In this document: piece by piece, positions 79 to 15,680 of the stretch
Numbering within the stretch: the first letter of the stretch is position 1
How the letters are laid out: the number at the start of each line of letters is the position of its first letter
NCBI GenBank assembly: GCA_010672185.1
Contig: JAAHHL010000032.1
Coordinates: 5,937 to 69,936 of the forward strand
Length of the DNA: 64,000 bases
Source of the DNA: Caldora sp. SIO3E6
GTDB lineage: Bacteria > Cyanobacteriota > Cyanobacteriia > Cyanobacteriales > Coleofasciculaceae
Direction of reading: 5' to 3'
Translations under genes and position numbers: made by a program
The notes under the pieces: model-generated
What the model was told of the DNA's origin: nothing
The model's input: only the letters and a program-made list of their open reading frames with translations
Database searches by the model: none

Positions 79-92
79 ATAAGTAATAAGTA
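79..92. repeat. Tandem heptamer TAAGTAA x2 (same family as the array at 34884-34974)
   Basis: Read directly from the sequence, downstream of the minus-strand ORF 102-527. Confidence 0.5.
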
Positions 93-101
93 AATGGTTT
101 C

Positions 102-527
102 TCATACCGAAGAACCCCTCCGGATGCGATAGTCCACCTCAAGGGTACAGTTATCCCCCAGTATTTTCCTCAACACTGGAGCTAAAGATGATTGAGCAAC
201 AGACTTAATGGTTGCCTTGCAGGATCTGTCGTTGAACACCCCAGTTCCCACATCCCCTGGCTTGATATCGGTAGGCAGCTGGAAGGATTCAAAATCTCCA
301 TCAACTGCTACCACCTTACAACTATAGATTTCCGATAAGTCAGACCCCACCTCAGTCTGCTGTAATCCCCGTTCCGTCCCTTGCTTCTTCATCTTGAAAG
401 TCACTGCAATCTCTTTGCCTGTACTGATTTGATTGCCGAAACGGTCTATTGCCGTTGTGTCGCCAACAGCAGTAAAGGTAAACGTGGCGTGATTCCAGAG
501 ATTGGGGTCAGCAAATGGAGTGGGCAT
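102..527 (-). CDS. Hypothetical protein at the last visible position of the phage head/structural operon
   Basis: 141-aa ORF, same strand and tightly packed with the structural genes. No motif recognised. Confidence 0.5.
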   Translation of the reverse strand: MPTPFADPNLWNHATFTFTAVGDTTAIDRFGNQISTGKEIAVTFKMKKQGTERGLQQTEVGSDLSEIYSCKVVAVDGDFESFQLPTDIKPGDVGTGVFNDRSCKATIKSVAQSSLAPVLRKILGDNCTLEVDYRIRRGSSV

Positions 528-573
528 CTAATTAGGTATTAGGTCTTAGGTGACTTATTATCTGCATCTCTCT

Positions 574-894
574 CTAAGGTTCTCTCAAAAATTCTTCCCT
601 TGTCATCCACTGCTGGGATGTATGGCGGATGTGGTAAATTCTAACTGTTTCACCTTCAACGCCATAGAGAATCCGGTAGTATTTCTTGTAGAGGAGACAT
701 CGAATCTTTTGCCCTACCAATTTCGTTTCCGGCGCAATTGGACAGCGCCTGGGCATAGAAGCAAGAGTCTCAATGGCTTCAAAAAGTCCATTGAACCAGT
801 CAGCAGCTGCTTCAGGGGAATCGTGCCTAATCCACAGATAAAATCCTTCAGCATCCGCGAAGGCTGTGGGAGTAATCCTAACGCGGTATGTCAT
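574..894 (-). CDS. ParE/RelE-family type II toxin
   Basis: 106 aa with an ATG start. ParE-like pattern (YRVRITPTAFADAEGFYLWI ... YRILYGVEGETVRIYHIRH). Overlaps the upstream antitoxin gene by 17 nt. Confidence 0.8.
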   Translation of the reverse strand: MTYRVRITPTAFADAEGFYLWIRHDSPEAAADWFNGLFEAIETLASMPRRCPIAPETKLVGQKIRCLLYKKYYRILYGVEGETVRIYHIRHTSQQWMTREEFLREP

Positions 895-1192
895 ACTTTA
901 ATCGCAATTCCTCTAAAGCTTCCACTGCATCCCGATCTTTCCCTTCTGCTGCCTCCGTTATGCCTTGTTGAATCATCGCAGCTGACCGCGCTAATGCTAA
1001 CTCGTCTAGTAACTCCTGATAGGATACAGCATCCTGCATGATTAGAGCAGCCTTACCATTGACAGTTAGGACAATCGGTTTGTGACTTTGCTGTAACTGT
1101 TCAATAAATTGTCTGGCATTCCGCTGAAAGTCTGAAAGAGGGTAAATCTCCCTTGCATCAAGCATTGACCTTACCTCAACTAAAACATTCAT
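878..1192 (-). CDS. Phd/YefM-family antitoxin
   Basis: 104 aa with an ATG start. The N-terminus (YPLSDFQRNARQFIEQLQQSHKPIVLTVNGKAALIMQD) is typical of Phd/YefM. Lies immediately upstream of, and overlapping, the toxin. Confidence 0.8.
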   Translation of the reverse strand: MNVLVEVRSMLDAREIYPLSDFQRNARQFIEQLQQSHKPIVLTVNGKAALIMQDAVSYQELLDELALARSAAMIQQGITEAAEGKDRDAVEALEELRLKYDIPR

Positions 1193-1249
1193 GAAATTTC
1201 ATGTTATCGCATGGAGTCAAGAAATCCAGGGATTTTTCTGGTTCGACGC

Positions 1250-2041
1250 CTAAAATGTTTCCTTCTCGGCAGTTTGAACAGAGCAAGCATCCTCTCTAGA
1301 ACTCCTGAATTTCACTGTACATTTACAATTTGTCCTACACTCACATTGTTGTGTAGGCAAGATTAACTCAGATAGTGGAACCCATCCTAGAGCTGCATAT
1401 TTAGGGCAGTGGCGGCAATGCTCACCGCTTCCGAGTACCCGTCGAGCCTCCCTCATTCCGTTGGTTTTTGCAATCGCAGATTTAGTTCCCCAAAACGTCA
1501 CCTTCCCCGACTCCGAAAACATTCTGAGGCGGTTGGTTAGCTGTGCAGGAGATACTTTTTCCTGGAGCATATCTATCGCTAAATATTTGATTCCAAATCG
1601 CTCACCGGTTAGGACATCTTTTCCTGAATGATACTGTTGCTTGAGGTTTCTAGCTACTAACAGGAATTTATCAGAAGTTAAATCCTCTTGCTTATCCAAT
1701 GCCTGAATCATCTGGGCAATATGGATATGTTTAAGAGCTAATCCTGCTTTCTGTTGCAGCTCTTTTAAGTCTATTCTCCCTTCGTTGTAATCGTTTCCTA
1801 GTTTGATTAGAGTCTGTTTTTCTTGCAAAAAATAGCGCTCAGCCTGAGTGCGTACCGCTTCCATTGATGCGAAGGCTTTGGAATCGCGGTATCTCCATCG
1901 ACGCGAGCGCACATCGAAGGAAATTTGGGGCAGAGCATCCGAATAGAATGACGAATTTAGAATGTAGAATTTAGAATTATTTTTTTCTTTATTCTTCATC
2001 CTTAATTCTTCATTTTTACATTGATTTTTCATATTTGACAA
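1250..2041 (-). CDS. Phage head-morphogenesis (Mu F / SPP1 gp7-like) protein; start uncertain
   Basis: The C-terminal Cys-rich tail (GEHCRHCPKYAALGWVP...PTQQCECRTNCKC) resembles the Mu-F C-terminus, and the gene lies downstream of the capsid gene. The ORF-track start is TTG, and the first ~30 codons read through a degenerate heptamer array (1953-1978). The real start may be internal, e.g. the Met at 1864. Confidence 0.5.
   Translation of the reverse strand: MSNMKNQCKNEELRMKNKEKNNSKFYILNSSFYSDALPQISFDVRSRRWRYRDSKAFASMEAVRTQAERYFLQEKQTLIKLGNDYNEGRIDLKELQQKAGLALKHIHIAQMIQALDKQEDLTSDKFLLVARNLKQQYHSGKDVLTGERFGIKYLAIDMLQEKVSPAQLTNRLRMFSESGKVTFWGTKSAIAKTNGMREARRVLGSGEHCRHCPKYAALGWVPLSELILPTQQCECRTNCKCTVKFRSSREDACSVQTAEKETF
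1953..1978. repeat. Degenerate tandem heptamer GAATTTA/GAATGTA (~3.7 copies)
   Basis: Read directly from the sequence. Confidence 0.6.
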
Positions 2042-2378
2042 TCAGTGGGATTGCATCCCTCCAACCTGTTGAGGGCTTAGTAATCCCGTACTCAGCCGCT
2101 ATTTTGCTGATAGCTGCATATCCTTGCGATTCGTACAACTGCTCAAGCTCCACAGTACGCCCATAGGAAGTCTCTGGTTCATCCCTGAAGATGATTGCTC
2201 CTTTATCCAAGTAGTATTCTAAGCCATCAAACTGTTTGAGCTTTTGAACCTGAGAATCTGATAGCTCATTCAGCCCCTTCTTCAGTTCAATGCGCCAAAA
2301 ATGTTGCTCCAAATAGCCACTAATGTAATGGTTATTTGACATCTCGCCAATCTTTTTTGGGTCAAATTCTATTATCAT
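2016..2378 (-). CDS. Hypothetical protein (moron-like; flanked by heptamer arrays)
   Basis: 120-aa ORF with an ATG start, same strand as the head genes. No motif recognised. Confidence 0.5.
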   Translation of the reverse strand: MIIEFDPKKIGEMSNNHYISGYLEQHFWRIELKKGLNELSDSQVQKLKQFDGLEYYLDKGAIIFRDEPETSYGRTVELEQLYESQGYAAISKIAAEYGITKPSTGWRDAIPLIVKYEKSM

Positions 2379-2383
2379 TTGGA

Positions 2384-2409
2384 AATTGCTAATTGCTAAT
2401 TGCTAATTG
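2384..2409. repeat. Tandem heptamer AATTGCT (~3.7 copies)
   Basis: Read directly from the sequence; intergenic. Confidence 0.8.
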
Positions 2410-2495
2410 AAAATAGGAGTCAGGAACCAGGAGTCAGGATAGATTGATTTTCATTCATAGTAGTGAAAAAATATTTTATTGGACTGCTTTCTGCC

Positions 2496-2526
2496 TTCTA
2501 AATTCTAAATTCTAAATTCTAAATTC
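2496..2526. repeat. Tandem heptamer TTCTAAA (~4.4 copies)
   Basis: Read directly from the sequence; intergenic, just downstream of the capsid gene. Confidence 0.85.
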
Positions 2527-2534
2527 CCAATTCA

Positions 2535-3467
2535 TCACGCTTTCACCGGGATATCAATATAGCGGCAATCAGTAGGATAATCAAAGATTGCAGGAGTGAT
2601 ACAAGAAAACATCGGGTAAATTCTTCTTAATCCATCTGTCCGAATGTACTCCTCTGGAGCCAGCATTGCCACCTGCTCTTCAATGTGACGATTAATGATA
2701 TCAGATTCCTTAGGATAGAGCATGATGCGGTCTTTCCCAACCCCTGGTCTAGTTATCCCGGAGCTATCTATTTGGGCAGCTTCTAGTTCTTTAACCTTAG
2801 TAATCATCAAATCAGGATAAAGCTGCTCTAACCTTTCCTTCACACTAATAGTTCCTAGGGAATTCTCCAAACTTACTATTAGATGGTGAGGGTCTTTTGG
2901 CAGTAGCAAATCCGTAGGGTAATCGGTGACAAAGTTATCTGTAAGACTCTCGATAACGTCTACGAAAAAATCCAAACACTGCTGATAGGTTGACGTGTAG
3001 ATGTTAAATGCACTGTTATCTGTAGCAACTAGCCCATTGACCAAAAAGCCAGGGAAGTTGAAGTTAGGAACACCTAAGGCTGTGAATTTATTGGTTCGTT
3101 GGGCGATCGCTTTTCTCGCTACCGCCATCCGTCGCTGAAACCGATCTAGATTGAATGCATGATAATGCTGAGCATTGTAAGCCCGTTCTTCCTGCAAACT
3201 CAAGGGGAACCCAGATGCAACCATGTAAATTGGGTATCTATCCTCATCTAGGGAGATATCCACCACTGGAATATTGGTAGCAGCATCAGACACTAAATCT
3301 GCATCCCCAAATTCGTTGATCTTTTCATATGCAATTTCCTTCATGCCTGGAGCAAGATCAACCATTGTCGGAATCAAGTCCCCATTCTCAAAGTACATGG
3401 TTCGGTATCTCGGTTCTAATACCTTCTCCATGCGTTGAGTCAAATCTTCATACAAAAAAGCCGCCAT
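2535..3467 (-). CDS. Putative major capsid protein (DUF2184-like)
   Basis: 310 aa with an ATG start. Position follows portal, scaffold and decoration genes. Size and sequence character fit the capsid family that accompanies DUF2213-type scaffold proteins. The family assignment is from memory only. Confidence 0.6.
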   Translation of the reverse strand: MAAFLYEDLTQRMEKVLEPRYRTMYFENGDLIPTMVDLAPGMKEIAYEKINEFGDADLVSDAATNIPVVDISLDEDRYPIYMVASGFPLSLQEERAYNAQHYHAFNLDRFQRRMAVARKAIAQRTNKFTALGVPNFNFPGFLVNGLVATDNSAFNIYTSTYQQCLDFFVDVIESLTDNFVTDYPTDLLLPKDPHHLIVSLENSLGTISVKERLEQLYPDLMITKVKELEAAQIDSSGITRPGVGKDRIMLYPKESDIINRHIEEQVAMLAPEEYIRTDGLRRIYPMFSCITPAIFDYPTDCRYIDIPVKA

Positions 3468-3480
3468 CAGTCCTCCTGAA

Positions 3481-3505
3481 AATTTAGAATTTAGAATTTA
3501 GAATT
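3481..3505. repeat. Tandem heptamer AATTTAG (~3.6 copies)
   Basis: Read directly from the sequence; intergenic. Confidence 0.85.
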
Positions 3506-3522
3506 GGAGCATTCCCTATTCC

Positions 3523-3555
3523 TCATTACTCATTACTCATTACTCATTACTCATT
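3523..3555. repeat. Tandem heptamer TCATTAC (~4.7 copies)
   Basis: Read directly from the sequence. The same unit recurs at 35119-35134. Confidence 0.85.
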
Positions 3556-3557
3556 CT

Positions 3558-4091
3558 TCATATCATCCTCAATTCCAAAATTCCCACTCCCATCTCTCCA
3601 GCTACTGGAGCAGGTGCAGCTTTCAGGAAAGTAGCATTAGGAATTGCGATCGCATTTGCTGTATCTGCATCCTTTCTAAAGCACCCTGCTATCCCCGTCG
3701 TTCCAGGCGTTGCTGTGTGACGTAGGAATACTGGACTGCCACGGCTCACATCAGAATCAATAAAGACAGCTATCACACCACGTCTGACTATTGAGACTTC
3801 CCGGTCCTTGGGATAGCCAACCCTCCCAGTGGCATCATCCAGGGTATACCCGCTGCGTTTCTCAAACGTATCAGTGCGGTAGGTAATCCCCTCAAACTTC
3901 CCATTAGCATCAGCTGGTAAAATCACCTTCCCCGTCGCACCTTCCCCAGTACCAGCAACCACACCCAAACCAAAAGGGAGGATTACTCCTGTGCCGTTAG
4001 TGAATGTCCAAATCTGAGCATCATCGAGGGAAACCAGTTCCCCTGGTTCATGGGACTTTTCAATAATCAAGTCATAGTTAGTTACTGGCAT
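3558..4091 (-). CDS. Putative head decoration / cement protein (DUF2190-like)
   Basis: 177-aa Gly/Ala/Thr-rich protein encoded between the scaffold-like and capsid genes. Its start overlaps the upstream gene's end by 14 nt. Confidence 0.45.
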   Translation of the reverse strand: MPVTNYDLIIEKSHEPGELVSLDDAQIWTFTNGTGVILPFGLGVVAGTGEGATGKVILPADANGKFEGITYRTDTFEKRSGYTLDDATGRVGYPKDREVSIVRRGVIAVFIDSDVSRGSPVFLRHTATPGTTGIAGCFRKDADTANAIAIPNATFLKAAPAPVAGEMGVGILELRMI

Positions 4092-5241
4092 TGCGTCTGC
4101 TCCTTCGGTATGCTCCTTCGTAATTCGCCACCACTTTAGAGCGGATGGTGCTCACCCCATCTGTTCTCTGCTTAGTTTGGGTGAGGAATCGGTCAGTTTT
4201 TCTTTGGCTACCTCTATCCTTGATGCCCTCCCAAAGACCATCAATGTAGCTATCGCTCTTATCGTCTAGGTTGAGTTTGGGGTCGATGAGTGCGATCGCA
4301 GCGGCTTTAATCTGTGATGGGGTTAGCTTACTATCAATCTCAAGTTTGTCAGACCCAACTACTGGGATAACTTCGTTCCAGGCATCAAACCGCGCCTGGA
4401 CTTGAGTCTCTATATCCTCATCAGTATTAGTTGTGGTATCAGCTGCGTCAAGCCGTCCCTGTAAGGTATCGTTTTCCTTTTCTAGTTCCCCAATCTTCCC
4501 CTCTGCTCCCTCTAAGTCTTTGGTGAGGGTGTCAATTCGAGATTGTAAGGCTGTAATTGCATCCTTCACATCATCAGCCACATCCTTCAAGATGCGCTGG
4601 TCCTTCTCATCTATTTTTACTATCAAATCGCTCACATTACGTTCCTCCTTTTTCTCACTATCGTTGTTAAACAAGAAATACAGAGGCTCTACCACAGCAT
4701 CTCCTGTATCAAATCTGAGTGTTAAGTTTTGTCCTCCTCTACCCTGTCCCGGTAGTAGTGGTGCTGCTACATGGTTGTACTCCTCCCTGATTTGTTCAAA
4801 AATTCCATCTTCTCGCTCTCTCAACTCTTTCAAAAAATAGCCGCTGCTAGCCTCTGGCGTTTTCCCTTCTGCTAGCAAGCGGTCAATGATTTCCACGGCT
4901 CGGTAATCATCAATGATAGCTTCAGCTATTAGCTTGCCATCCTCTCTGCCAATTGTTCCTAATAGATGCCCAACCTTTAACCCGTCGCGGTTTAGATTAA
5001 ATCGACGGCTTTTGGGGTGAGCAAGAAGAATTGGCAGTCCTGCAACAGACTTGACGGAATCGTTAAACAATCCCTCCTCTGTAACAACTTCTACCCGTTT
5101 TTGGGTTATACCACTCTTATCCGGGAAAAGATAAGTAAGAGGAATATCCTTTTGTCCCAAAGTAACGTGCATCCAATATCTGCCGTCGGCTTTCTTTTCC
5201 CACGGCAGAGGGCTGTATTTGTCTAAGCGCAGTAAGTCCAT
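4078..5241 (-). CDS. Putative scaffolding / prohead-processing protein (DUF2213-like N-domain plus coiled-coil C-terminus)
   Basis: 387 aa, immediately downstream of portal. The acidic coiled-coil segment (DEKDQRILKDVADDVKDAITALQSRIDTLTKDLEGAEGKIGELEKENDTLQGRLD) is typical of scaffolds. Confidence 0.55.
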   Translation of the reverse strand: MDLLRLDKYSPLPWEKKADGRYWMHVTLGQKDIPLTYLFPDKSGITQKRVEVVTEEGLFNDSVKSVAGLPILLAHPKSRRFNLNRDGLKVGHLLGTIGREDGKLIAEAIIDDYRAVEIIDRLLAEGKTPEASSGYFLKELREREDGIFEQIREEYNHVAAPLLPGQGRGGQNLTLRFDTGDAVVEPLYFLFNNDSEKKEERNVSDLIVKIDEKDQRILKDVADDVKDAITALQSRIDTLTKDLEGAEGKIGELEKENDTLQGRLDAADTTTNTDEDIETQVQARFDAWNEVIPVVGSDKLEIDSKLTPSQIKAAAIALIDPKLNLDDKSDSYIDGLWEGIKDRGSQRKTDRFLTQTKQRTDGVSTIRSKVVANYEGAYRRSRRNASN

Positions 5242-5253
5242 CCCTTTAAACTA

Positions 5254-7242
5254 TCACAGCTCCATCGCTACTTCTACAAAATCTGCCGCTGTCACCGTTG
5301 CTAGTTCCTCCCACTCTTCATCAGTGAGGATGTCATTGCTATCAGTACGAATTTCCGAGTGCATCACCTCACGTATGCCACCAAAGAATTCAGGAGGCAT
5401 CACCTGCTTGTAAATCGCCTCGGCTTCTTCCTTGGACTCCACACCAATAAAGAGCTTCTCTTCATCGAACTTCCCATCAATATACTGTGCGATTGCAAAT
5501 ATCTTCGGTGAGTTCAACTTAGTCCCCACATACACATCCAATGCCATACCATCAGCACCTTTGGTCTTTTGGATGTGTCCATAGCCAACAGGCAGCATTT
5601 TACCGTGACGTAGCTGGAAAGGAAAGTATTGAAGTCCAATATTAAACCCATTCCACTCAATGATCCGCTGTACCGGAGTAGCATCATCTGACCTAAGCTG
5701 ACGAGCCGACTCTACAGGCTGGTCATGCCCTGCGACTTTCTTGTTCCGTGCTTTGCTAATTGCGCTCGTGCGATCGCTAGCCTCAACCACTGTTGGGGTA
5801 TTTCTTCCTTGGAACCACACCCCCCATAGAGCATCTTCTCTCTTTGAGTCATCCTCACTACTAACATCGTCACTCAAAACAAAGTCCGGGGAAAACTGGG
5901 AACCTTCGTACCCTGAGCGCACTTCTTCTGGGGTAATTGCTCCAATCTCAGTCAGAGTCTTACTTCTGTCAGCTGCTAGCTTCTCGTATTCCATGCGTTC
6001 TGTATCTGTTAGCTGCAAGTCGAAGGGAACTTTGATGTCCCATGATTCGGGAATTTTTCCCTTTGATGGGGAATCTTTGGCAAGAAAAGTATAAATTAGC
6101 AGCTGCCGTAAGTTACTTACCCAGCTGTGAGCATAGTCCTGCACAAGGATTGCCCACTCAGAGCGCATAGCCAACCCTTGATTATTAGTCAGTCCCTGGC
6201 TCCCTATCTCTCCGAATAACTTAAACTTTGGAATACCTGATGCTGCCGCCCAACGATTTTCTAGGGATTCCATAATGTCCTTTGCCCCACCGTAGGAACG
6301 AGTTACACTCCCCGGTTCCTCATTTTCCAAATCGTAGTAGATACCCCTAACCACAGACTTCCCCATATCCAAAGCAAGGGAGCGGTTGATAATTTGCTGC
6401 TGACCTGCTTGAGTTCCTTTCTGTTTGTCTTGTAGGAGTATCTGTCCCAAACCTTTCATACCAAGGGTAAATACATCGTAATCAGCCAACATTGCGCTGC
6501 CAGCTTTGATACCCTGGAGCCAATCAATGTAAGCATCGTACATTGCTTGGATAACGCTCACACCGTCGTCATTCAGTCCTGTTTTCAGGTAGTTCCGTCT
6601 ACTGTAGATTCGATTACCCCAAAATGGCAGAATTCGAGACTTGTGGATTTTTGCCCCATACTGTTGGTCTGATTCTACAGAATACAAACGGTAAAAGTTG
6701 GGTTGGCGAGTCCTGTTATTGCCCCAATCTGGGTAAAGCTCCCAGCAGTCATAAACCTGGAGCCATCTAATAGATTTAATATTATTTTTATCAACGGGTT
6801 CACTAAATTCTTTCCTGTCATCTATACCGATTAAAATATAAGCTTTGCCGAATTGACGGGCTAGGATAGCGGCAATCGGAAAAGCATCATTAGCACCATA
6901 AATATCAGCCTCATCTTCCGATTCTGTTTTGTCCTCCCTGTTTCCTAATTCGGAAATATACTCCATCATTAAATCAGGGAGATTATCACCAGAATTATTG
7001 TTTGCGATCGCAAGGTGGAACCAAGCTTTAGCAGCACATTCAGGATAAAGAAACACAGCCTTCCTGAGCAACTCGTCTCGGTAGGGTAAAGCTTCTAGGG
7101 ATTGCCTAGTGAGTCGTGTTTTACTTGTGTTGATAGTAACATTCTCAGTTTTACTTCGAGATGTCCCAATCCCGGTGTAGGGGTTGCTTAAAGCTGCAAA
7201 AGCTCCAAACAAAGCTTGAGAATCAATTCGCAGTTCACTCAT
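5254..7242 (-). CDS. Portal protein with a ~180-aa C-terminal extension
   Basis: 662 aa, located after TerL plus a small ORF. Resembles the DUF1073-type portal in size and position. For the C-terminal extension, see findings. Confidence 0.7.
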   Translation of the reverse strand: MSELRIDSQALFGAFAALSNPYTGIGTSRSKTENVTINTSKTRLTRQSLEALPYRDELLRKAVFLYPECAAKAWFHLAIANNNSGDNLPDLMMEYISELGNREDKTESEDEADIYGANDAFPIAAILARQFGKAYILIGIDDRKEFSEPVDKNNIKSIRWLQVYDCWELYPDWGNNRTRQPNFYRLYSVESDQQYGAKIHKSRILPFWGNRIYSRRNYLKTGLNDDGVSVIQAMYDAYIDWLQGIKAGSAMLADYDVFTLGMKGLGQILLQDKQKGTQAGQQQIINRSLALDMGKSVVRGIYYDLENEEPGSVTRSYGGAKDIMESLENRWAAASGIPKFKLFGEIGSQGLTNNQGLAMRSEWAILVQDYAHSWVSNLRQLLIYTFLAKDSPSKGKIPESWDIKVPFDLQLTDTERMEYEKLAADRSKTLTEIGAITPEEVRSGYEGSQFSPDFVLSDDVSSEDDSKREDALWGVWFQGRNTPTVVEASDRTSAISKARNKKVAGHDQPVESARQLRSDDATPVQRIIEWNGFNIGLQYFPFQLRHGKMLPVGYGHIQKTKGADGMALDVYVGTKLNSPKIFAIAQYIDGKFDEEKLFIGVESKEEAEAIYKQVMPPEFFGGIREVMHSEIRTDSNDILTDEEWEELATVTAADFVEVAMEL

Positions 7243-7250
7243 AGTTCTAA

Positions 7251-7274
7251 GAATTTAGAATTTAGAATTTAGAA
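7251..7274. repeat. Tandem heptamer GAATTTA (~3.4 copies)
   Basis: Read directly from the sequence, immediately upstream of the portal start. Confidence 0.85.
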
Positions 7275-7298
7275 AAAATCATTCTACATTCACTCGTC

Positions 7299-7703
7299 TC
7301 ATATAACATTAGCTCCTAGCAACCCTACAACAACATTACCTGTTTCGGCTTCACAACCACAGTTAAGCCGCTGCCTAAGAGCATCCACCCCCCAACATTC
7401 ATCAATCGTTAGTCCACAATCTGCTGATTCCTGTAGGGTAAGTAATGAGGTAATTAGTGGGGTAAAATCAGCAGGTTTTAACCACTTTGCCCCATCTCCT
7501 TCTATCAACCCAGAGCGCGATACAGCCCCCCACAGTGGGAGAAAGTAGGCAGCTACTAGATAGGGGCGATAGTTAATAGTCCCGTTGTTATCAGTCCCAG
7601 TTGAAGCAGTCAAAATAGCTGTTATTTCAGCATCCTTGGTGGTGTCGGTTACACCAAGGTTAGACTTTGTGATCGCAAGGGCTGTGTTTAGGTCGGTGAA
7701 CAT
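7299..7703 (-). CDS. Hypothetical protein between terminase and portal
   Basis: 134-aa ORF with an ATG start, co-oriented with its neighbours. Confidence 0.45.
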   Translation of the reverse strand: MFTDLNTALAITKSNLGVTDTTKDAEITAILTASTGTDNNGTINYRPYLVAAYFLPLWGAVSRSGLIEGDGAKWLKPADFTPLITSLLTLQESADCGLTIDECWGVDALRQRLNCGCEAETGNVVVGLLGANVI

Positions 7704-7781
7704 GGTGAGACAAGGGAGGACACTATCTACTAGCGTACAAAAAAAGTTACAGTATTTGGGGATTATTTCCGAAAATGGGAA

Positions 7782-9221
7782 TCAGGTAAGTAACAATGGA
7801 TTGATAAGTGCTAGTTGCCTTGCCTCTTCAATATAAGCAAAAGCCACAGCCCATGCCATCACACTATCATCATGCCCGGTAATCGCTTCCCTGGAATATG
7901 AGCTAAAACTCCTCAGCTCATCAATCCCGTCCCAATCTGGAGGGAACTGAATTAAGCCTTCTTCCAATGCGATCGCAATCCTGTCGGTATTGATAATTTT
8001 AGAGTTCTTTGTGGTAGTCACAGCCTCAATCCGAACACCAGGGAAATGCTCAATAAGGCGTTCCTGGACTGTTCTACCACCTCCATTAGTTTCTACTGCC
8101 ACCAAAACAGGAGTGTACTTATCGACCAACTTACTGCATTGATTAATCGAAGAAGTAATTGATGCATTACTTTGTTTATACTCAGCAACCAGCTGGTAAG
8201 GGATATCAGAAATATCCCAAACTTGGCAGCTAAAAGCATCATCACCACCAAAGTTAGGGTCAATGCCGAATAGGTAAGACTTGGCAAACACAGGATCAGA
8301 CCATTCCCCATGAGCTGAAGCGGTAATAGCCTCTGCCTTAAATAGCCGTGATTCAGATTTCTTGACCCGCCAATTCCCATCCAGAAGTCTAGCCCGTTCC
8401 ACCACATCTTGAGCTTCGAGGTTGGCTAGGTAATGGGGGTCTTTTTCTAATAGGGCTGGGTTATCAGTGAGCTTTGCACTGATGAAGGTGAAGGATTTGG
8501 GGTTACTGTTGGGATATCTTGATCGCAAATCTTGGGCTGTATCTGCCCAAATTACCTCATCCGACTTCACTATAAACCAACGCAACACCCCAGAGCGCTC
8601 AGGGTAGGGGTAACCTTGGGGGTTTATCCACCAATCAATCAGCTCAGCCAGCCAGGATTCAGCATCAGGGTTGCAGGTAGCTCTCAACTGAGGTTTGATG
8701 CCGTGAGTTGACCTCATCCTGGTCATGAGGTAGAAGAACATTTTCTTAGAAAAGTGGGTCAGCTCATCGTAAGCAATTCTACTCACCTGTGCGCCCTGCC
8801 AGTTATAGATATTCTTCTCATGCTGTAGATGAGCAAACCTAACACTAGCACCCGTTGGGAACGTCCACCTCAACCATTTCTGATTGGATGTAGCACCCAG
8901 CGTTGGATACCAAATACCAGCTTCATCCCATAATCCCCCCTCATTGGTAATTTCTGGGGAAGTTCGGCGAAATATTACACCGCCATAGTGGGGATTCTCC
9001 AACAGTTCTGGTTTGGCAAAGTCGAGAAGTAGTGCCAGGGTTTTCCCGCTACCTGCACTGCCACCATAGATGGCAATGTCAGCATCACTATCCAGAAACT
9101 CCTGCTGCTTGGGTTGAGGGGTGGGAAATCCGCTATCAGTATCAGTTGGTTTCGGAGCTAGGAGAGAGTTTAGTTTGACCCGCGCTGCCATTTTGGGGGT
9201 TAATGACGGGAATTTCTCCAT
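7782..9221 (-). CDS. terL: Terminase large subunit
   Basis: 479 aa. Walker A (YGGSAGSGKT), a Walker B-like motif (RIAYDELTH), and a C-terminal RNaseH-like nuclease region (FGIDPNFGGDDAF ... HDDSVMAWA). Confidence 0.9.
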   Translation of the reverse strand: MEKFPSLTPKMAARVKLNSLLAPKPTDTDSGFPTPQPKQQEFLDSDADIAIYGGSAGSGKTLALLLDFAKPELLENPHYGGVIFRRTSPEITNEGGLWDEAGIWYPTLGATSNQKWLRWTFPTGASVRFAHLQHEKNIYNWQGAQVSRIAYDELTHFSKKMFFYLMTRMRSTHGIKPQLRATCNPDAESWLAELIDWWINPQGYPYPERSGVLRWFIVKSDEVIWADTAQDLRSRYPNSNPKSFTFISAKLTDNPALLEKDPHYLANLEAQDVVERARLLDGNWRVKKSESRLFKAEAITASAHGEWSDPVFAKSYLFGIDPNFGGDDAFSCQVWDISDIPYQLVAEYKQSNASITSSINQCSKLVDKYTPVLVAVETNGGGRTVQERLIEHFPGVRIEAVTTTKNSKIINTDRIAIALEEGLIQFPPDWDGIDELRSFSSYSREAITGHDDSVMAWAVAFAYIEEARQLALINPLLLT

Positions 9222-9705
9222 CTGCTACTACCCTAAATCCATGTCTTTCAATAAATGCGATCGCAGCATTAATGTCATCCTCAATCGGTCGGGGAATTAC
9301 CCTCTCTATTGCCCACTTTGGCGCTGGACGGTGTTCTGTATGCTCCTCTGTAACTGTCTCCTCCTGATGCCATTTTAACTGAGGGGGCTGACCTTTCCTT
9401 CCTGGAACATAATGTTCAAGCCGTCTGGTTTTCTTAGTAGTCCACTTAATTGGTTGTCCGTTTTCAAGAGCATCAGTCAATTTTTGCAGCGCCAAACCCT
9501 TTTGGTACTTGGGACAGCGTTTTCGGAACTCTTCTCTTGCATGTACAACTGCGTCCCTAAATTCCGGTTTGTCCTCAATCCACTTATAAAAGGTTGTCTT
9601 CCCTATTCCCCCAGCCAACCAGCCAACCTCATCCCCTCCCTCTGTGGCTATCGCTTCACAAATGGTTTCGACAATTTCTTGGTTGTAACGCGATTTTCTA
9701 GGCAT
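9142..9705 (-). CDS. terS: Putative terminase small subunit (HTH)
   Basis: ATG at 9705 gives MPRKSRYNQEIVETICEAIATEGG...GIGKTTFYKWIEDKPEFRDAV, a typical TerS HTH N-terminus. Lies immediately upstream of, and overlapping, terL. Confidence 0.6.
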   Translation of the reverse strand: MPRKSRYNQEIVETICEAIATEGGDEVGWLAGGIGKTTFYKWIEDKPEFRDAVVHAREEFRKRCPKYQKGLALQKLTDALENGQPIKWTTKKTRRLEHYVPGRKGQPPQLKWHQEETVTEEHTEHRPAPKWAIERVIPRPIEDDINAAIAFIERHGFRVVADGEIPVINPQNGSAGQTKLSPSSETN

Positions 9706-9796
9706 AAGTGAACAAAATTCTTTCCTCAACCATAACGGATTGAGGGGGGAGTGGGGAAGGGAGATTCACTTCCCCAATTGTTGGGAAGTGGGGGAA

Positions 9797-10831
9797 TTAA
9801 TGCTTGAGCAACACCTCCATTTGGCAATTCCAATATTTGTACTGCTCCACCAAGCTTTTCTCTAAAGCTTGGTAGCACCCTGACTCCCGGCTCCAGATAT
9901 TTCGAGCACCATCGCTCCAAACAGCCTTGCAGTGCTTTGCCACTTCCATAGCATAATTGGCATCAAGGCTAATCACATCCATCTGAGGATAAAGCAGAAC
10001 CTGCCTTATTGGGGAGCCTCCTAGCAAGTGTACAAGTCTGCCTTCAAACCGCTCAGGAACAAGGTTGGTAGAACCGTGCCCCGACGGAACACTGTAGCCA
10101 AGCCAGTACTGTGATGGGAGTTCCGCATCGCACTTTGGGATTAAAAGCACACGCCCTGCATATTGAGCCAGTTCAGCTGCCTGCTCCAGAATCTCTGGCA
10201 ACTGCTCAGGGGATTCTATATCCCTTGCTGTAGCAAGCAGCGGCTTATTTTGGCGCACCATCTCTAGGTGCTTGGGGTGCTTGTAATTTTTCCATTTATT
10301 GTCAACCATCGCCATGTGGCAATGAGCTTTCACTTTGCCGCTGCTATTGATGCCAAGCCTCCAGCCAGATGTAGAAGCGATCGCATCGTACCGGCTCTTT
10401 CCTCCGCCTCCGCAATAGAAGAGCAACGGCAGTTTGATTTTGTACTCCCAGCAGTTGAGCGGGCGCTTTTTGCCAGGATCTGTGCCGATCAATTTAAATC
10501 CTAAGCGCTCATAAAAGCTATTGGCTTTTAGATCCACAGGGCACTTGACAAAGATGCGATTGCACCCAGCTTCTATAGAGGAGCAAAGCACCCGGTAAAA
10601 CAGCAACCTCCCCCATCCCAAGCCCTGGCACTCTGGCACTACCGCTATTGAATAGATTGTAGTTTGCCCATCCCTACGGTGGTGGAAATGAGCAAATCCT
10701 ATATCCTTCAATACTTCCAAGCATCCAGAGGCGGCAGACTTTTCCAGTGCCCAAATATTTACAAAGCCCAATTCCTTAGAGAACCTTGAAGCGATACGCT
10801 TAGCTTCAATTGGTATAGGGTTCGGTAGCAA
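9797..10831 (-). CDS. GNAT acetyltransferase domain fused to a TGT/DpdA-like TIM-barrel-like domain
   Basis: N-terminal GNAT acetyl-CoA motif (VVPECQGLGWGRLLFYRV). The C-terminal half has a motif series reminiscent of tRNA-guanine transglycosylases (YWLGYSVPSGHG; HLLGGSP; VISLDANY). TTG start in the ORF track. Confidence 0.55.
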   Translation of the reverse strand: MLPNPIPIEAKRIASRFSKELGFVNIWALEKSAASGCLEVLKDIGFAHFHHRRDGQTTIYSIAVVPECQGLGWGRLLFYRVLCSSIEAGCNRIFVKCPVDLKANSFYERLGFKLIGTDPGKKRPLNCWEYKIKLPLLFYCGGGGKSRYDAIASTSGWRLGINSSGKVKAHCHMAMVDNKWKNYKHPKHLEMVRQNKPLLATARDIESPEQLPEILEQAAELAQYAGRVLLIPKCDAELPSQYWLGYSVPSGHGSTNLVPERFEGRLVHLLGGSPIRQVLLYPQMDVISLDANYAMEVAKHCKAVWSDGARNIWSRESGCYQALEKSLVEQYKYWNCQMEVLLKH

Positions 10832-10857
10832 GGGAATTTGGGGGATATCCCCTTGCT

Positions 10858-13800
10858 CTAACCCTTTCCCACCAGTACCGTATTTGATGTTGATTTACCG
10901 TTTTTGGTAAAAGTCAGACATTGTAAATCGACCAAGCGTTGCTCAATGCGATCACGAACTTCCACCAGTTGCTCAGCACTCATCTGGTCAATGTTGGTGA
11001 GGAAGCCAATCACATAATCGGTCACTTGGATTTCCGGCTTAATCCACAAGCACTCCATCGTATCTTTACCACTAGTCGCTCTGGAGGTCGTCTCTTTCCG
11101 ATGCCACCCTTTTAGAAGAGAAGCATACTTACTGCTTGGATAGCCCGAAATAATTGCCTTCCCCTTAATTGACCCCAGGAGTTCAATCAATTTAGAGTGC
11201 TGCTCAATCGAATATTCGTATTCGTATGGGGTGTGAGAATTCCGAGTAGATTGAAGATAGGGGGGGTCGCAATAGAAAAAGGTGTCAGGACTATCGAATC
11301 TCTTGATAATTTCCAAAGCATCCAGCTGGTAAATTTGGATATCCTTAATCCTGGATGCGATCGCCTGTAAGTGTGAGTGGTCATTATTTTCTGGCTTGTC
11401 AAGTGACTTTGAACTATAGCCTGATGCCCAACCTGTCCCACCTCCTGCGAAACTAATGCGACATTGGACGTAGAACCTCAGTGCTGATTCAATCGGGTCA
11501 TCTGATGCAACTTTAGCCCACTCTACAGTTTCCTCGTTGAAAGTGAGCGCTTCAATGAGGCGAATGAGTTCATCCGAATTGTCCTTGAGTTGCTGCCAAA
11601 AGTTAACGGCTTCTGGGTGGATATCGTTGTAGACTTCGACTTCTGACGGGGATTTTAAGATGCCTACACTATACATTCCCCCAAATGGCTCGACATAAAT
11701 CTTGTGTTCTGGGAAATGAGAAGCGATCCATTTCCCAATTCGCCATTTCCCCCCATACCAACGGTTAGCTGGTCGGTTGATTTTAAAAGCATCCCCATTG
11801 CCATTATTCCCAGTATGTTCAAGAGAGGACATAGAGGACATAACTGTTCGTTTTACCTTTATCCCCCTTGATTCCAAGGATTGGAGATATTTGGGTAGCG
11901 CGATAGTGTAGCTGTATTCGCGCTGTGTCATTTTTTCTCGATATTCTTCCTCCCATGTTTTGCGATCGCGAGGACCTGCTAACCCATCCCAGGCTGCTGA
12001 ATCAAAACTCATAATCTGAGAAGCTTTGAGAATAGGAGCAGCATCAAGCTTCACCCCCCACAGGTGAAACTCGAAATCTGGCAGCACTGTTGATACAGCC
12101 TCAACCACTTCCTTAATTTGCTGATTACTGGCACGAGCACACAATGTGCCAATCCCTACCTTCCATCCTTCACCATAGTGCTGCTTCATTTGCTCTATCA
12201 GGGGTTTGAGCTGCTGGGCATGGTGGACGTAATCTTCGGTGTCCCATCCCTGAACGGTTGGAACCCACTGCCAAGGACAATCCCGGTATTTTTCCCAAAA
12301 ATGCCAAGCTAACTTAGTAGTCTGCTTTTGGCGGTGGCGAATTTTGCGGCGATCGCCTCCTGTAATGGGAGGCTCACAGCAATAATCCATTGTTGCTACC
12401 CATTCGGGATTCCAAGATTCCAGCCATTCCACATACTGAGATGGAGTGTAAGGATACCTTCCTCCCCAATCAGTGGCAGCAACATATCCCCCAGAGTCTG
12501 CCGCTGTCCTTGCACCCTCAGGGAACTGGGGAGACCGGGGAAATGATTTGTTTTTGGCGCGGCTGCGATTCCAGAAACTAGATGCTGGAAATAGGTAACA
12601 GAGGTCGGGGGGCATCAAGTCAGGGCGTTCATGAGAAGCCGCAACAGTTACCCAAAATTCTTTAACAATTTTTTCTGAGTCTTGATCATTTGAGAGTACT
12701 TTCCCAGTCTCCCCAATTTCGGAGTCCCCTTTCCCAATATTCCCAACCTGCATCGTGGCAGTAGTGCCGTGTTTGGTGATGTAAGTGCGGGTTTTTAAAT
12801 TATTATCACCCCCCTCACTGATAATATTATCAGTGAGCTTTTTCCTAAGTCCCGAAACAAAGGGTTGAGTAACCTTGCACTGACGGGCTATTTCCCTGTC
12901 ACTCCACTTACTCCACTCCTGATCTCTGAGGAGCATCATCACAGCACGGCGCTTATCTGCACGGCTACGAGGCTTAGCTGCTTTATGATCAGCGTTGGCG
13001 GCAGCAGCGTATAATACGGCATCGCGGCGGGTTCCCTGGTGAATGATTACCGGAATATCCTCAATCCCTAATTCTTCATAAGCCTTGCAACGGTGGAAAC
13101 CGTCAGCTAACCAGTCGTTTTCCCCGTCATAGAAAACGTCAGCCGGATCTAGTTCAGCGCCTTCTTCTATCGCCTCTTTTAAAGTAGCAACGTGGCTCAA
13201 GTCCAGTTTCTCACGAGGTTGAGTCCCGCCGTCACGGCGGATTTGTGCAATGGGGAGAGAGGTAGGAGTTGGGGACGGGGAGACACGGGGACACGAGGAC
13301 ACGGGGACAGGGAGACGGGGGGACGAGGGAGCACCATTTAAAGCATGATTGCCATTTCCTTGGATAGCTTCCATCGCTTCATCAAGAGCCTTCTTTGATG
13401 CACTCTTTGCAGATTCGGAGGGCTGGCAGACTTCTACTTCCCCTTCATCCTTATAAACACAATCCCAAACCCCAAATTCCTCTCTTCCATCCTCAAACTC
13501 TATAAAAGGGTGCAACGCTGTTCCGCTTATGGGGCGAAAATCAATGAGCTTCCCTCTTTTAATAAGTGAGGTGTTCCTGTTTTTCAATCCCCATTCTGGT
13601 TTGTTCAGATCCTGAACAACTCTGTCCCCTGGAGCAAAAGGTATAACAGCGAACCTAACCACCCACAACGGTTGTGTGGTATCAAAATTTCCAAAAAACT
13701 TATCAATAAATTCCTGCTTTGATAGCTCCGGATATCCTTCTAATGCTACCTCCGACTCTGGCATATCCTCTAATTTCTCCTGATAAGGCTCCGCAGTTAG

Positions 13801-15246
13801 CCGTAGGATAGCAATCTTTTTCCCACCATTCCGAGGTGATTTGTCGTAAGCATCTACCAGCTTCCCTTCTCGAAAAGATTTGATGAACTGCTTGGCATGG
13901 CGCTCTTTCCAGTTCCTTCGAGTCACAGTTTTTTGATGAAGGCGATCCGCTGTGTAGCCAAAGCTCAGTATCATTTCCTCTTCTTCTTCTAATTTTTGCA
14001 GTTGATCAACAGAAGTTGGTGTAATCTGTCCAATTTGCTTGAGAAATAGCTCTACAAATTTGGGGGGAACTGAATACCCCAAAATTGAACCTGCTACCCC
14101 GACTTCTTCTGGAAACTCGTACCAATCCGGAAAGGATTGCAGTCTGCGCACGCATTCAATAGTGACCTGTTTTACCTGGCCAGACGCTCCTACGTCGCTA
14201 CCGTTGACGCTATCAGGGAGCCAGATGTCGGCAAATTTAGAGCGATTACAACCTTTTCCATCAGTGAAGTGCGATCGCAAGATTGTGTTCGCAGGTCTGG
14301 AACTAGGTATTGCTGCATACCTACTGCGGCCACCAACGCGCTCAATTAGCAGTGGTGAAGGTTCACCACTTTCTAAAAATTTATCAACTGACCGCTGTTG
14401 CCCTTTTAGCAATTCAGAATCAGGCAAGCTAGGAATTAAATCTTTAATCGTTTCGTACCAGCTAATTTTTGCAGATTTTTCTGGCACTTCCAAGCTCGAT
14501 TGGTCATCCCGTGATGCCCAGGCAATAAATCTTTTCCGTGCCTGGGGAACACCGTAATCACTCAAATCTACAATGGTGGATTTGAGATTGTAACCAAAAG
14601 ACGAGATAACAAACTCAATTTGCCTCCAGCTTTGAGATTTTTGATAAGCTGGCACATTTTCCAAGACAAAGTGCTTGGGCTTAATTTTCTTGATACAAGC
14701 TACTACTGCTTTCGCCGCTGCCACATCATCATCTTGCTCAGTGCCACCTTTCTTGGCAACACTGAAGTTGGAGCACATTGGAGATGCCCAGAGGATATCT
14801 GGCTCTTGGGGAAAATCAGGGAAATCCTCTGCTGCCAGTTCCTGTATTGTGCGCCTAAATACCTTGCAGTTTGGGAAGTTTTTCTCATGGGCTACAGACA
14901 TTGCCTCGCTTAGTTCTGGTTTATCTGGATTGAATTCCACTGACAACAGTGGCTCAATCCCAGCTTCAACTAAGCCAGCTTCAACACCACCGCCACCGGA
15001 GAACAATACTACCGCCGTCGCTTTTTTTTCGACTTTCAATATTGAATCCATTGAATATGGAAGGACACCATACCCCGCCTCGTGTACCCAGAATTGAGGC
15101 ATTCCTCCAGGAGAAAAAAACTTCTCGGTAATGATGCCAATTTTTCCATTCTTCATGGTGGCAATCATTCCCACTTCTGCTGAGTCGTAAAGTTCTTGAG
15201 AATGTTGCTTGTCTACTGTTGTTTTGGTCTTTTTGCGTCGTGCCAT
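10858..15246 (-). CDS. Giant multi-domain DNA-modification protein: C5-cytosine MTase, ASCH, ParB-like N-domain/HTH, TGT (DpdA-like), Dam-type N6-adenine MTase
   Basis: The first ATG is at 15246; the ORF-track start at 15252 is TTG.
- C5-MTase motifs: LFSGGGG, SPMCSNFS, LENV, QARKR, GYSVPP.
- ASCH: HQKTVTRRNW...
- ParB/Srx: WLADGFHR.
- TGT-like: ADSGGY, MDY, VQGW, GIGTLC, HLWGVK, SFDSAAW.
- Dam (D12): RWYGGK, EPFGGMYS, FYCDPPY. Confidence 0.85.
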   Translation of the reverse strand: MARRKKTKTTVDKQHSQELYDSAEVGMIATMKNGKIGIITEKFFSPGGMPQFWVHEAGYGVLPYSMDSILKVEKKATAVVLFSGGGGVEAGLVEAGIEPLLSVEFNPDKPELSEAMSVAHEKNFPNCKVFRRTIQELAAEDFPDFPQEPDILWASPMCSNFSVAKKGGTEQDDDVAAAKAVVACIKKIKPKHFVLENVPAYQKSQSWRQIEFVISSFGYNLKSTIVDLSDYGVPQARKRFIAWASRDDQSSLEVPEKSAKISWYETIKDLIPSLPDSELLKGQQRSVDKFLESGEPSPLLIERVGGRSRYAAIPSSRPANTILRSHFTDGKGCNRSKFADIWLPDSVNGSDVGASGQVKQVTIECVRRLQSFPDWYEFPEEVGVAGSILGYSVPPKFVELFLKQIGQITPTSVDQLQKLEEEEEMILSFGYTADRLHQKTVTRRNWKERHAKQFIKSFREGKLVDAYDKSPRNGGKKIAILRLTAEPYQEKLEDMPESEVALEGYPELSKQEFIDKFFGNFDTTQPLWVVRFAVIPFAPGDRVVQDLNKPEWGLKNRNTSLIKRGKLIDFRPISGTALHPFIEFEDGREEFGVWDCVYKDEGEVEVCQPSESAKSASKKALDEAMEAIQGNGNHALNGAPSSPRLPVPVSSCPRVSPSPTPTSLPIAQIRRDGGTQPREKLDLSHVATLKEAIEEGAELDPADVFYDGENDWLADGFHRCKAYEELGIEDIPVIIHQGTRRDAVLYAAAANADHKAAKPRSRADKRRAVMMLLRDQEWSKWSDREIARQCKVTQPFVSGLRKKLTDNIISEGGDNNLKTRTYITKHGTTATMQVGNIGKGDSEIGETGKVLSNDQDSEKIVKEFWVTVAASHERPDLMPPDLCYLFPASSFWNRSRAKNKSFPRSPQFPEGARTAADSGGYVAATDWGGRYPYTPSQYVEWLESWNPEWVATMDYCCEPPITGGDRRKIRHRQKQTTKLAWHFWEKYRDCPWQWVPTVQGWDTEDYVHHAQQLKPLIEQMKQHYGEGWKVGIGTLCARASNQQIKEVVEAVSTVLPDFEFHLWGVKLDAAPILKASQIMSFDSAAWDGLAGPRDRKTWEEEYREKMTQREYSYTIALPKYLQSLESRGIKVKRTVMSSMSSLEHTGNNGNGDAFKINRPANRWYGGKWRIGKWIASHFPEHKIYVEPFGGMYSVGILKSPSEVEVYNDIHPEAVNFWQQLKDNSDELIRLIEALTFNEETVEWAKVASDDPIESALRFYVQCRISFAGGGTGWASGYSSKSLDKPENNDHSHLQAIASRIKDIQIYQLDALEIIKRFDSPDTFFYCDPPYLQSTRNSHTPYEYEYSIEQHSKLIELLGSIKGKAIISGYPSSKYASLLKGWHRKETTSRATSGKDTMECLWIKPEIQVTDYVIGFLTNIDQMSAEQLVEVRDRIEQRLVDLQCLTFTKNGKSTSNTVLVGKG
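13271..13329 (+). repeat. G-run-rich low-complexity tract (degenerate GGGGACAC-like octamers) encoding the Pro/Ser linker on the opposite strand
   Basis: Seven runs of three or more G on the plus strand within 59 nt. It meets the canonical G3+N1-7 x4 quadruplex motif at 13303-13329. Confidence 0.6.
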
Positions 15247-15248
15247 TT

Positions 15249-15680
15249 TCAATTTCCAAATAACTTTAACTGTCCGGAGTTCTCTAACTGCTGCTGTTTC
15301 TTTCTAAATCTCGTTGAGGCAGCTTTCTTAGCGTGTTCGGTAGCGTCGTAGCGTAGGTGACACACGCTACACAATGCTTTTAAATTGTTGCGATCGCAAT
15401 TAGATGGATCGTGGTCAAGGTGGGCTACTGTAAGAACAAAGCGCCTATATTTTGGCAACTCACAGCCCAACTCTTCCTCGTATTCAAATAATTCCGACCA
15501 CCATTTGTCTTCTCCAAAATGCACGGCATTGCCATTAAGTTGCTCAGCAAACTCATCCCAGCTTTGTGATGGTCTTTTGCAGGGACGTTGGCATTCTTGG
15601 CAATGCCAATCTGCTGCCTCTTTTATCTCTAGTGCTATCGATTCCCAATTCTTGGGATATAGCTTGCGATTCATTGGCAT
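15249..15680 (-). CDS. HNH endonuclease
   Basis: 143 aa. Contains CQECQRPC ... AHLDHDPSNCDRNNLKALCSVCHLRYD (HNH with a Zn-finger Cys pair). Confidence 0.85.
   Translation of the reverse strand: MPMNRKLYPKNWESIALEIKEAADWHCQECQRPCKRPSQSWDEFAEQLNGNAVHFGEDKWWSELFEYEEELGCELPKYRRFVLTVAHLDHDPSNCDRNNLKALCSVCHLRYDATEHAKKAASTRFRKKQQQLENSGQLKLFGN

Follow-up and report, generated by a model that had tools for sequence, protein, structure and literature searches.

Can one phage polypeptide lay three chemically different protective marks on DNA? The question is raised by a large open reading frame (ORF) on the minus strand of a 64,000-nucleotide stretch from the assembly of Caldora sp. SIO3E6 (contig JAAHHL010000032.1), the whole of which is called the window here. 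A first-pass annotation had described the product of this ORF as a single protein with a C5-cytosine DNA methyltransferase (MTase), an ASCH domain, a ParB-like domain, a barrel of the tRNA-guanine transglycosylase (TGT) or DpdA type, and a Dam-type MTase. We favor the reading that it is a single-chain, modular DNA-modification enzyme with deazaguanine insertion among its activities, and put the probability of this statement as a whole at about 0.6; the architecture alone, a genuine single chain composed of these domains, is highly probable. We infer that one such protein could probably put 5-methylcytosine (5mC), N6-methyladenine (6mA) and a 7-deazaguanine on phage DNA.

The ORF is free of stop codons over 4.4 kb and 1464 aa, and profile matches to a C5-MTase, a ParB domain, a DpdA-type fold and a Dam-type MTase within it bear out the single polypeptide. 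All motifs quoted in the first-pass annotation were recovered about where it had placed them, and four of its five domain calls (C5-MTase, D12 MTase, DpdA and ParB) are supported by profile searches, the ASCH call being the exception. Because the homologues begin with MARRKK or MVRRKK, translation probably starts at the ATG at position 15246, which lies 2 nt past the stop of the HNH gene upstream of it.

Deazaguanine insertion would be the task of the DpdA cassette. It matches the Pfam family DpdA (PF23859; 39.2 bits over aa 914-1070, gathering cut-off 27) and not the Pfam family TGT (PF01702), and the PADLOC model of DpdA also matches it (E 2.7e-7). As a query (aa 865-1138), the cassette retrieved 135 homologues, all with PF23859, which are found in phage genomes and are nearly all free-standing proteins of 260-300 aa (about 270) with 42-51% identity; among 1.84 billion representatives, 56 relatives pass a threshold of E <= 1e-30 and 271 one of E <= 1e-10. 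A direct sequence search of the PDB returned nothing and a 47-sequence cassette profile reached the bacterial DpdA structure 7ui4 only weakly (E 0.68), so that structure prediction was needed to assign the fold. The AlphaFold2 (AF2) model, built from the cassette alignment, is a TIM barrel (mean pLDDT 90, pTM 0.89). Foldseek ranked 7ui4, "DNA preQ0 insertase DpdA", first among PDB entries (E 2e-8), followed by about 40 TGT entries, and placed a mycobacteriophage DpdA at the top of the BFVD viral models (E 5e-11), where the matches also include Cellulophaga phiST (DpdA3) and Vibrio nt-1 (DpdA2). The TGT fold proposed earlier for aa ~885-1125 is thus predicted with high confidence, and the nearest structure is that of DpdA itself.

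The cassette carries the motifs AADSGGY (aa 917-923), ATMDYCCE (953-960), TVQGW (999-1003), GIGTLC (1033-1038), HLWGVK (1063-1068) and SFDSAAW (1082-1088). In the alignment of 47 homologues (cassette numbering), D55, D92, G169/G171/T172/L173/C174, H199-L-W-G-x-K and S218/D220 are invariant, and Q137-G-W is kept by 90% or more of them; D55, D92, D220 and Q137 correspond to Asp919, Asp956, Asp1084 and Gln1001 of the whole protein. By alignment, Asp919 is predicted to act as acid/base, Asp956 to bind the base, and Asp1084 to be the nucleophile. Against 7ui4, the cassette profile sets AADSGG on GDCGAF (Asp95, Phe99), MDY on SLDHII (Asp130) and VQGW on AHGW (His181), and Asp1084 falls at profile position ~257-258 of the bacterial DpdA models, where those matches end. 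The motifs also align with IGDSGAF, AALDVI and SVDSSGW of the Rosebush phage DpdA (gp2), Asp1084 falling on the last of these. In bacterial DpdA, Asp95 and Asp256 are indispensable, and all three aspartates are invariant across DpdA and TGT (Gedara et al., PMC10164549).

Several features of the cassette weigh against insertion. Gln1001 stands at the position of His181, which contacts the Watson-Crick edge in bacterial DpdA and in DpdA1; the large subdomain (Ins8/Zn) that bacterial DpdA carries is absent, the cassette model ending ~50 aa past strand 8; and the model for the bacterial DpdA equivalog (NF041059) scores 30.1 bits, far below its cut-off of 200, over profile positions 143-258 of 406. 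Because of the Gln at the His181 position and the absence of Ins8, we assign the cassette to a minimal phage type of DpdA and not to the bacterial equivalog; DpdA2 enzymes are likewise reported without the conserved His, and the structural model suggests that aa 865-1138 form a complete enzyme of this type, of about 275 aa. The loss of His181 and of the Zn/Ins8 subdomain would also fit a possible, if rather unlikely, alternative, in which the TGT-fold domain no longer inserts 7-deazaguanine; it might instead flip bases, bind DNA, act as a DNA glycosylase, exchange another base, or serve as a protein- or tRNA-directed transglycosylase. Such repurposing exists in the TGT family, e.g., in the protein deazaguanylation reported for Cap10. 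However, the three aspartates, GIGTLC and HLWG are invariant in 47 diverged homologues, which argues that catalysis has been retained, the family matched is PF23859 and not PF01702, and the cassette is embedded among DNA-acting domains.

The supply of the base bears on both readings. No member of the QueC, QueD, QueE, FolE, QueF or YhhQ families was matched among the scanned window ORFs (about eight of <= 117 aa were left out), in line with the earlier remark that queC, queD, queE and folE are missing here, and the window contains neither a preQ1 riboswitch nor a tRNA. Since no synthesis genes were found, the precursor would have to come from the host. Cyanobacteria generally make preQ0 and preQ1 for tRNA queuosine. 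The host of the DpdA-only phage Orion, in contrast, has no preQ0 pathway, and Orion DNA is unmodified, while the DpdA-only phage 7-11 has only traces of dADG (PMC6884629); both phages count against insertion, Orion less so for the difference in hosts. The eight contexts of free-standing members of the cassette clade are all phage-like, and in none of them do preQ0 synthesis genes (queC/D/E, folE) occur within 8-10 kb, which again favors a domain that does not insert. In two of the eight, however, a PF02592 gene (YhhQ/COG1738 family) lies directly downstream of the DpdA homologue, a possible link to deazaguanine; PF02592 is the family of YhhQ, a preQ0 transporter (PMC5372724). DNA MTases are nearby in six of the eight. 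Genes of 169-170 aa of the PF02592/YhhQ family were noted directly 3' of free-standing DpdA homologues on phage contigs at L001:10819-11331, L002:912-1424 and L004:8864-9373, and two contigs unrelated to each other have a DUF5131 gene shortly before a gene that bears DpdA (L007:2302-3105 and L011:6480-7277).

By these contexts, the clade belongs to the "DpdA only" class of phages. In a published survey, 76 of 180 phages carry dpdA without synthesis genes, and host supply was proposed for them (PMC6884629); in the phage Rosebush, dPreQ0 replaces 28% of G (PMC6884629). Phage DpdA1 and DpdA2 inserted preQ0 or preQ1 from host pools when expressed alone in E. coli (PMC10516641). For the cassette itself, insertion is a prediction from motifs and relatives.

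The two MTase domains are more conventional. The C5-cytosine MTase called earlier holds: it matches the Pfam family DNA_methylase (PF00145) over its full length (aa 83-408, E 1.8e-33, profile positions 6-323 of 324) and TIGR00675 just above the cut-off (101.1 bits against 100.65), with motifs I (FSGGGG, aa 84-89), IV (SPMCSNFS, 157-164), VI (ENV, 198), VIII (QARKR, 237-241) and X (GYSVPP, 392-397) all present. The predicted catalytic Cys160 belongs to motif IV, which reads P-M-C in this protein and P-V-C or P-P-C in relatives. The call of a Dam-type MTase of the D12 class is likewise upheld by matches to MethyltransfD12 (PF02086, aa 1165-1377, E 1.1e-23) and phrog_56 (E 4.7e-66) and by the motifs EPFGGMYS (aa 1188-1195) and DPPY (1329-1332); because its score for the Dam subfamily lies below the cut-off (TIGR00571, 73.8 against 114.85), we do not file the domain as Dam proper. 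The ASCH call fared less well. Its motif KTVTRR is present (aa 441-446) and the segment aa 425-540 matches a family of unknown function, phrog_11705 (E 5e-18), but the ASCH/PUA family was not confirmed, (PF04266), as Pfam gave no match at all for aa 425-539 at E <= 0.05 and a six-sequence profile found only spurious MHC matches in the PDB.

The ParB/HTH call is clear in PHROG (phrog_1033, E 1e-15), whereas the Pfam ParB_N score stays below its cut-off (16.8 bits against 26.3; aa 666-802); HTH_23 and HTH_37 match weakly in the same segment. The domain has the motif RRDGGTQPR and, at aa 717-724, DGFHRCKA, which contains a GxxRxxA-type box (GFHRCKA) conserved in relatives. From the adjacency of ParB and barrel, the first-pass annotation had inferred that the two look like a DpdB-DpdA fusion. 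In such a unit, the ParB domain would be orthologous to the DpdB ATPase and specifically required for insertion. We consider this distinctly improbable. Its premise is correct, since bacterial DpdA needs DpdB, a ParB-superfamily ATPase (PMC10164549), and there is a phage ParB that activates a DNA dioxygenase on dsDNA (PMC13229309). ParB domains also recur with DpdA-family enzymes: Rosebush gp1 (ParB-like, L009:1-792) overlaps gp2 (DpdA), ahead of queC, queD, queE and folE; Rinkes gp1 (L006 1-1302) is a ParB-like domain fused to DUF6610 that heads an operon with folE, dpdA, queC, queD and queE, where Rosebush has the ParB-like gene only; an unrelated protein of 1223 aa (P0265) has ParB directly before a DpdA of the present clade; and a further case is the fragment P0030.

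Homology to DpdB, however, was not found. Models of DpdB, DndB and the DGQ(Q/H)R motif had no match in NCBIfam, Pfam or PADLOC, the PADLOC search at E <= 1 on aa 640-1145 being negative as well; the motif here is DGFHR, of the general GxxRxxA kind, and not the DGQQR of DpdB; and Rosebush gp1 ParB has no detectable similarity to this domain. ParB belongs instead to the scaffold of the protein family: ParB/HTH was mapped in 18 of 28 relatives, only one of which (P0004) also has DpdA, and there in the inverted order, DpdA then ParB; and the sister element described below has ParB without DpdA. Besides, phage DpdAs act alone, and fusions of ParB to MTases form a known class enriched in prophages (PMC12704722). 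A weaker functional form of the proposal is kept, namely that ParB-fold proteins recur independently beside or fused to DpdA-family enzymes, and the likeliest reading of ParB in this protein is that of a DNA-loading module shared by all catalytic cassettes. The further statement that ParB-MTase fusions are phage anti-restriction proteins stands as far as prophage-enriched fusions are documented; the anti-defence role is suggested in that work, not shown (PMC12704722).

A search with the full-length protein retrieved the 28 relatives, whose named sources are Symploca and Coleofasciculus, and none among GenBank phages. In this family, the scaffold is constant (an N-terminal C5-MTase, then ParB/HTH, then a C-terminal tail), and an ASCH-like domain, an 88-aa domain, a PF05869 Dam, a D12 MTase and DpdA are optional in-frame cassettes. 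DpdA occurs in this protein, after ParB, in P0004, before ParB (order C5-DpdA-ParB-D12), in the fragment P0030 and in the 902-aa P0244. A sister contig, L008 (JGI Ga0247423_1086776), is 98-99% identical in DNA to window positions 1-9766 and 13339-13680, and between the two a block of ~3.6 kb (9767-13338), reaching from the middle of the ORF to the end of the next gene, has been exchanged. Within it, ParB is 75% and the D12 domain 81% identical; the sister element keeps ParB, has a PF05869 Dam in place of DpdA, and an unrelated 350-aa ORF (L008:2475-3527) replaces the neighboring gene (GNAT-DUF6610, window 9797-10831). By this comparison, DpdA is a mobile, recently exchanged cassette, and the block at 9767-13338 is a hot spot for DNA-modification cargo.

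The 350-aa ORF had no match in Pfam, PHROG or a phage tblastn search; by eye it shows TGT-like motifs in order (FDSCAF, SYD, SCQG, GLGGWC, VHIFGV, STD), a resemblance that is not established (HHalign E 0.3). Other fusions of the DpdA clade were seen among P0271, P0265, P0253 and P0267, one with a hairpin domain of Acb2/Tad1, a family of anti-defence sponges, one with ParB, and several with long regions without a family match.

The same comparison bears on whether the ORF could be a chimera made in assembly, or a pseudogene in decay. Its source is a metagenome-assembled genome (MAG), and over its first 626 aa it matches the sister protein P0001 with 100% identity, after which identity falls sharply, a pattern that an assembler switching between co-occurring variants could yield. 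Moreover, the exact 1462-aa product is on record neither in the gene-position index nor in the protein collection, although a neighboring protein of the same MAG is, which also tells against a real enzyme; the depositor annotation may have skipped the ORF or marked it as a pseudogene. We nevertheless hold an artefact to be very improbable: 4.4 kb are read without a stop codon, the catalytic motifs of all three enzymes are intact, the C5 domain through ParB to the tail lies in one ORF in every relative, and fusions that include DpdA also came out of separate assemblies of other samples (P0004, P0030, P0244). The junctions of the cassette lie inside the diverged block, hence not at an assembly switch point, and together with the independent fusions this argues against an assembly artefact.

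If the protein is the modification enzyme that we favor, it might work as follows. The ParB domain, with its GxxRxxA box, would tether the protein to, or let it slide on, newly replicated phage DNA, where the two MTases would use SAM to form 5mC and 6mA. The DpdA barrel would flip target guanines, Asp1084 attacking C1' and Asp919 serving as acid/base, and guanine would be swapped for a 7-deazaguanine base (preQ0 or preQ1) supplied by the queuosine pathway of the host, since no genes for making it were found in the element. The outcome would be phage DNA that resists many host restriction enzymes. The positions of the domains and adjoining genes are collected in Table 1.

Table 1. Positions in the window of the large ORF, its domains and the two adjoining genes.
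Feature	Position	Strand	Basis or remark
Whole ORF	10858..15252	-	1464 aa from TTG 15252, or 1462 aa from ATG 15246
N-terminal domain, ~75 aa, without family assignment; kept in most relatives	15028..15246	-	
C5-cytosine DNA methyltransferase, aa ~76-420	13993..15025	-	PF00145, TIGR00675, motifs
Conserved ~115-aa domain, aa 425-540, with KTVTRR (earlier label ASCH, family unverified)	13633..13980	-	phrog_11705
Optional ~88-aa cassette, aa 541-628, without family assignment	13369..13632	-	99-100% identity to sister protein P0001 stops at its C-terminal edge
ParB-N-like domain and HTH, aa ~661-830	12763..13272	-	phrog_1033; weak ParB_N, HTH_23/HTH_37
DpdA-type TIM-barrel transglycosylase cassette, aa 865-1138 (predicted)	11839..12660	-	PF23859, homologues, AF2, Foldseek, PADLOC
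D12-class (Dam-type) N6-adenine DNA methyltransferase, aa ~1150-1410	11023..11805	-	PF02086, phrog_56
Family-specific C-terminal tail, aa 1411-1464; also retained by relatives without D12 domain	10861..11022	-	
GNAT (aa ~33-125) and DUF6610 (aa 153-335) gene	9797..10831	-	PF20314, GNAT families
Upstream HNH endonuclease gene, stop codon abutting the start of the large ORF	15249..15680	-	phrog_1571, E 3e-26

The ORF lies between replication genes (DnaB, HNH) and packaging genes (TerS, TerL), in surroundings that also include genes for a major capsid protein, a cement protein, a portal protein and a Cro/CI-type regulator; farther along the window follow ParA/ParB, RecD2, RuvC and a tyrosine recombinase, and the sister contig runs on into tail sheath and tube genes. 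By its gene content, the element is a prophage or phage-plasmid of myovirus-like type, from the filamentous cyanobacterium Symploca. At 29158-34886, where ParB, ParA and a RecD2 helicase are encoded, the backbone looks like that of a phage-plasmid; RecD2 is split over the overlapping ORFs 32633-33235 and 33135-34886, which may reflect a frameshift. The portal protein (5254-7242, minus strand) has a C-terminal PF18823 "InPase" domain, an arrangement also present in the sister element. Just beyond the tyrosine recombinase gene (35837-36796), seven consecutive giant TPR-CHAT proteins of 894-1980 aa are encoded on the plus strand (36859-62515), the first of which also has four Clp_N repeats.

The gene that follows the large ORF, 26 nt downstream on the same strand, was overlooked in the first-pass annotation. 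Its product joins a GNAT domain to DUF6610 (PF20314, full-length, E 1.4e-37, 129.7 bits against 27), and its AF2 model reaches a pLDDT of 95. The protein is 100% identical to one from a MAG of Symploca sp. SIO3E6, encoded on a 100-kb contig. All source-named proteins among its 95 homologues are cyanobacterial, and most carry the GNAT domain; the DUF6610 domain is ~30% identical to halovirus proteins and 35% to gp1 of the Mycobacterium phages Rinkes and Funsized. DUF6610 corresponds to DpdA4, which was defined from HVTV-1 gp69 (HHpred 100% to PF20314, 92.5% to TGT) and called specific to archaeal viruses (Hutinet et al., PMC10516641); cyanobacterial prophages and mycobacteriophages also carry it, so the restriction to archaeal viruses does not hold. 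An HHalign comparison of DUF6610 with the DpdA cassette was marginal (E 0.035, 31 columns, covering HLxGG..SxD only), hmmsearch was negative, and Foldseek with the whole model gave GNAT matches only; since our own comparisons were marginal or swamped by GNAT, the TGT-like fold of DUF6610 is taken from the published HHpred result (PMC10516641). By eye, the motifs MVDNKW, HLLGG and SLD are kept and no Asp stands at the acid/base position.

GNAT-DUF6610 repeatedly occurs together with C5 MTases. It shares contigs with P0003 and P0014; in Nostoc CHAB 5844 the protein is fused to a C5 MTase, and in a prophage of Nostoc GT001 its gene and the start of a C5 MTase gene overlap. On an unrelated phage contig (L012:1474-4966; Logan SRR28867352_64380), a C5-MTase, a free-standing DpdA of the present clade and a GNAT protein form an overlapping operon, in which the GNAT domain, directly 3' of DpdA, is 39% identical to that of the window (E 7e-21) and the C-terminal half of the protein differs. 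Computational work on BREX-related systems has noted a GNAT that is at times fused to a TGT homologue (PMC12839542) and that may or may not be of this family. The DpdA4-like gene is probably part of the same modification module as the large ORF. A bolder reading, which we regard as speculative and unlikely, is that the two genes together make a 7-deazaguanine derivative new to DNA, e.g., N-acetylated dPreQ1 as a counterpart of the formyl (DpdN) and methyl (DpdM) derivatives, which would give four marks and two DpdA-family barrels. It is favored by the same GNAT subfamily adjoining a clade DpdA in L012 and by the ParB-DUF6610 protein of the Rinkes preQ0/dpdA operon, but GNAT-DUF6610 also accompanies C5 MTases without a PF23859 DpdA.

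A literature search found neither a DpdA-MTase fusion nor a DpdA in cyanobacteria, and the present protein would be the first case found of a DpdA in one chain with two DNA methyltransferases and a ParB domain; if the favored reading is true, it would be a compact "all-in-one" anti-restriction enzyme. The in-frame exchange of cassettes between near-identical elements amounts to a natural experiment in the diversification of phage DNA modification, and the locus offers a handle on the open question of what the many "DpdA-only" phages do. The neighboring gene extends DpdA4/DUF6610 from archaeal viruses to bacteria, and its GNAT partner is a hint of additional chemistry. Even with an inactive cassette, the locus would remain a clear, though ordinary, example of a modular ParB-MTase family.

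Among known systems, the cassette is closest in kind to the phage DpdA1 and DpdA2 groups, with which it shares the TGT-type TIM barrel, the three aspartates, the G-x-G-x-L and H-x-W-G motifs and the class of dpdA without synthesis genes; these enzymes need no DpdB. Its nearest deposited phage relatives are the DpdAs of Mycobacterium cluster-B phages, e.g., Rosebush gp2 (~26% identity over 64-81% of the cassette). Phage DpdAs are free-standing, whereas this one lies in frame within a multi-enzyme chain of 1464 aa and has Gln at the His181 position. The bacterial DpdA/DpdB system (Salmonella Montevideo, 7ui4) provides the best structural match, with equivalents of Asp95, Asp130 and Asp256 in the cassette, and it also includes a ParB-superfamily protein; but identity to 7ui4 is 15%, Ins8 is missing, the NF041059 score is low (30 bits against 200), and the ParB here is not DpdB-like. 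In contrast to bacterial Dpd restriction-modification, there are no dpdC-K genes, and the setting is a phage and not a defence island. The DpdA4 of halovirus HVTV-1 (gp69) shares PF20314 with the neighboring gene, which differs in its fusion to GNAT and in an acid/base Asp that, by eye, is seemingly missing. The phage and prophage ParB-MTase fusions (PMC12704722) resemble the present protein in that DNA MTases are joined, in a prophage, to a domain that has a GxxRxxA box and, here probably, the ParB-CTPase fold, with a presumed anti-defence role; those surveyed involve N6_N4 MTase, Methyltransf_23, DUF3850, DUF4417 and others, the terms transglycosylase, TGT and DpdA being absent there, and to this design the present protein adds two different MTase classes and a DpdA.

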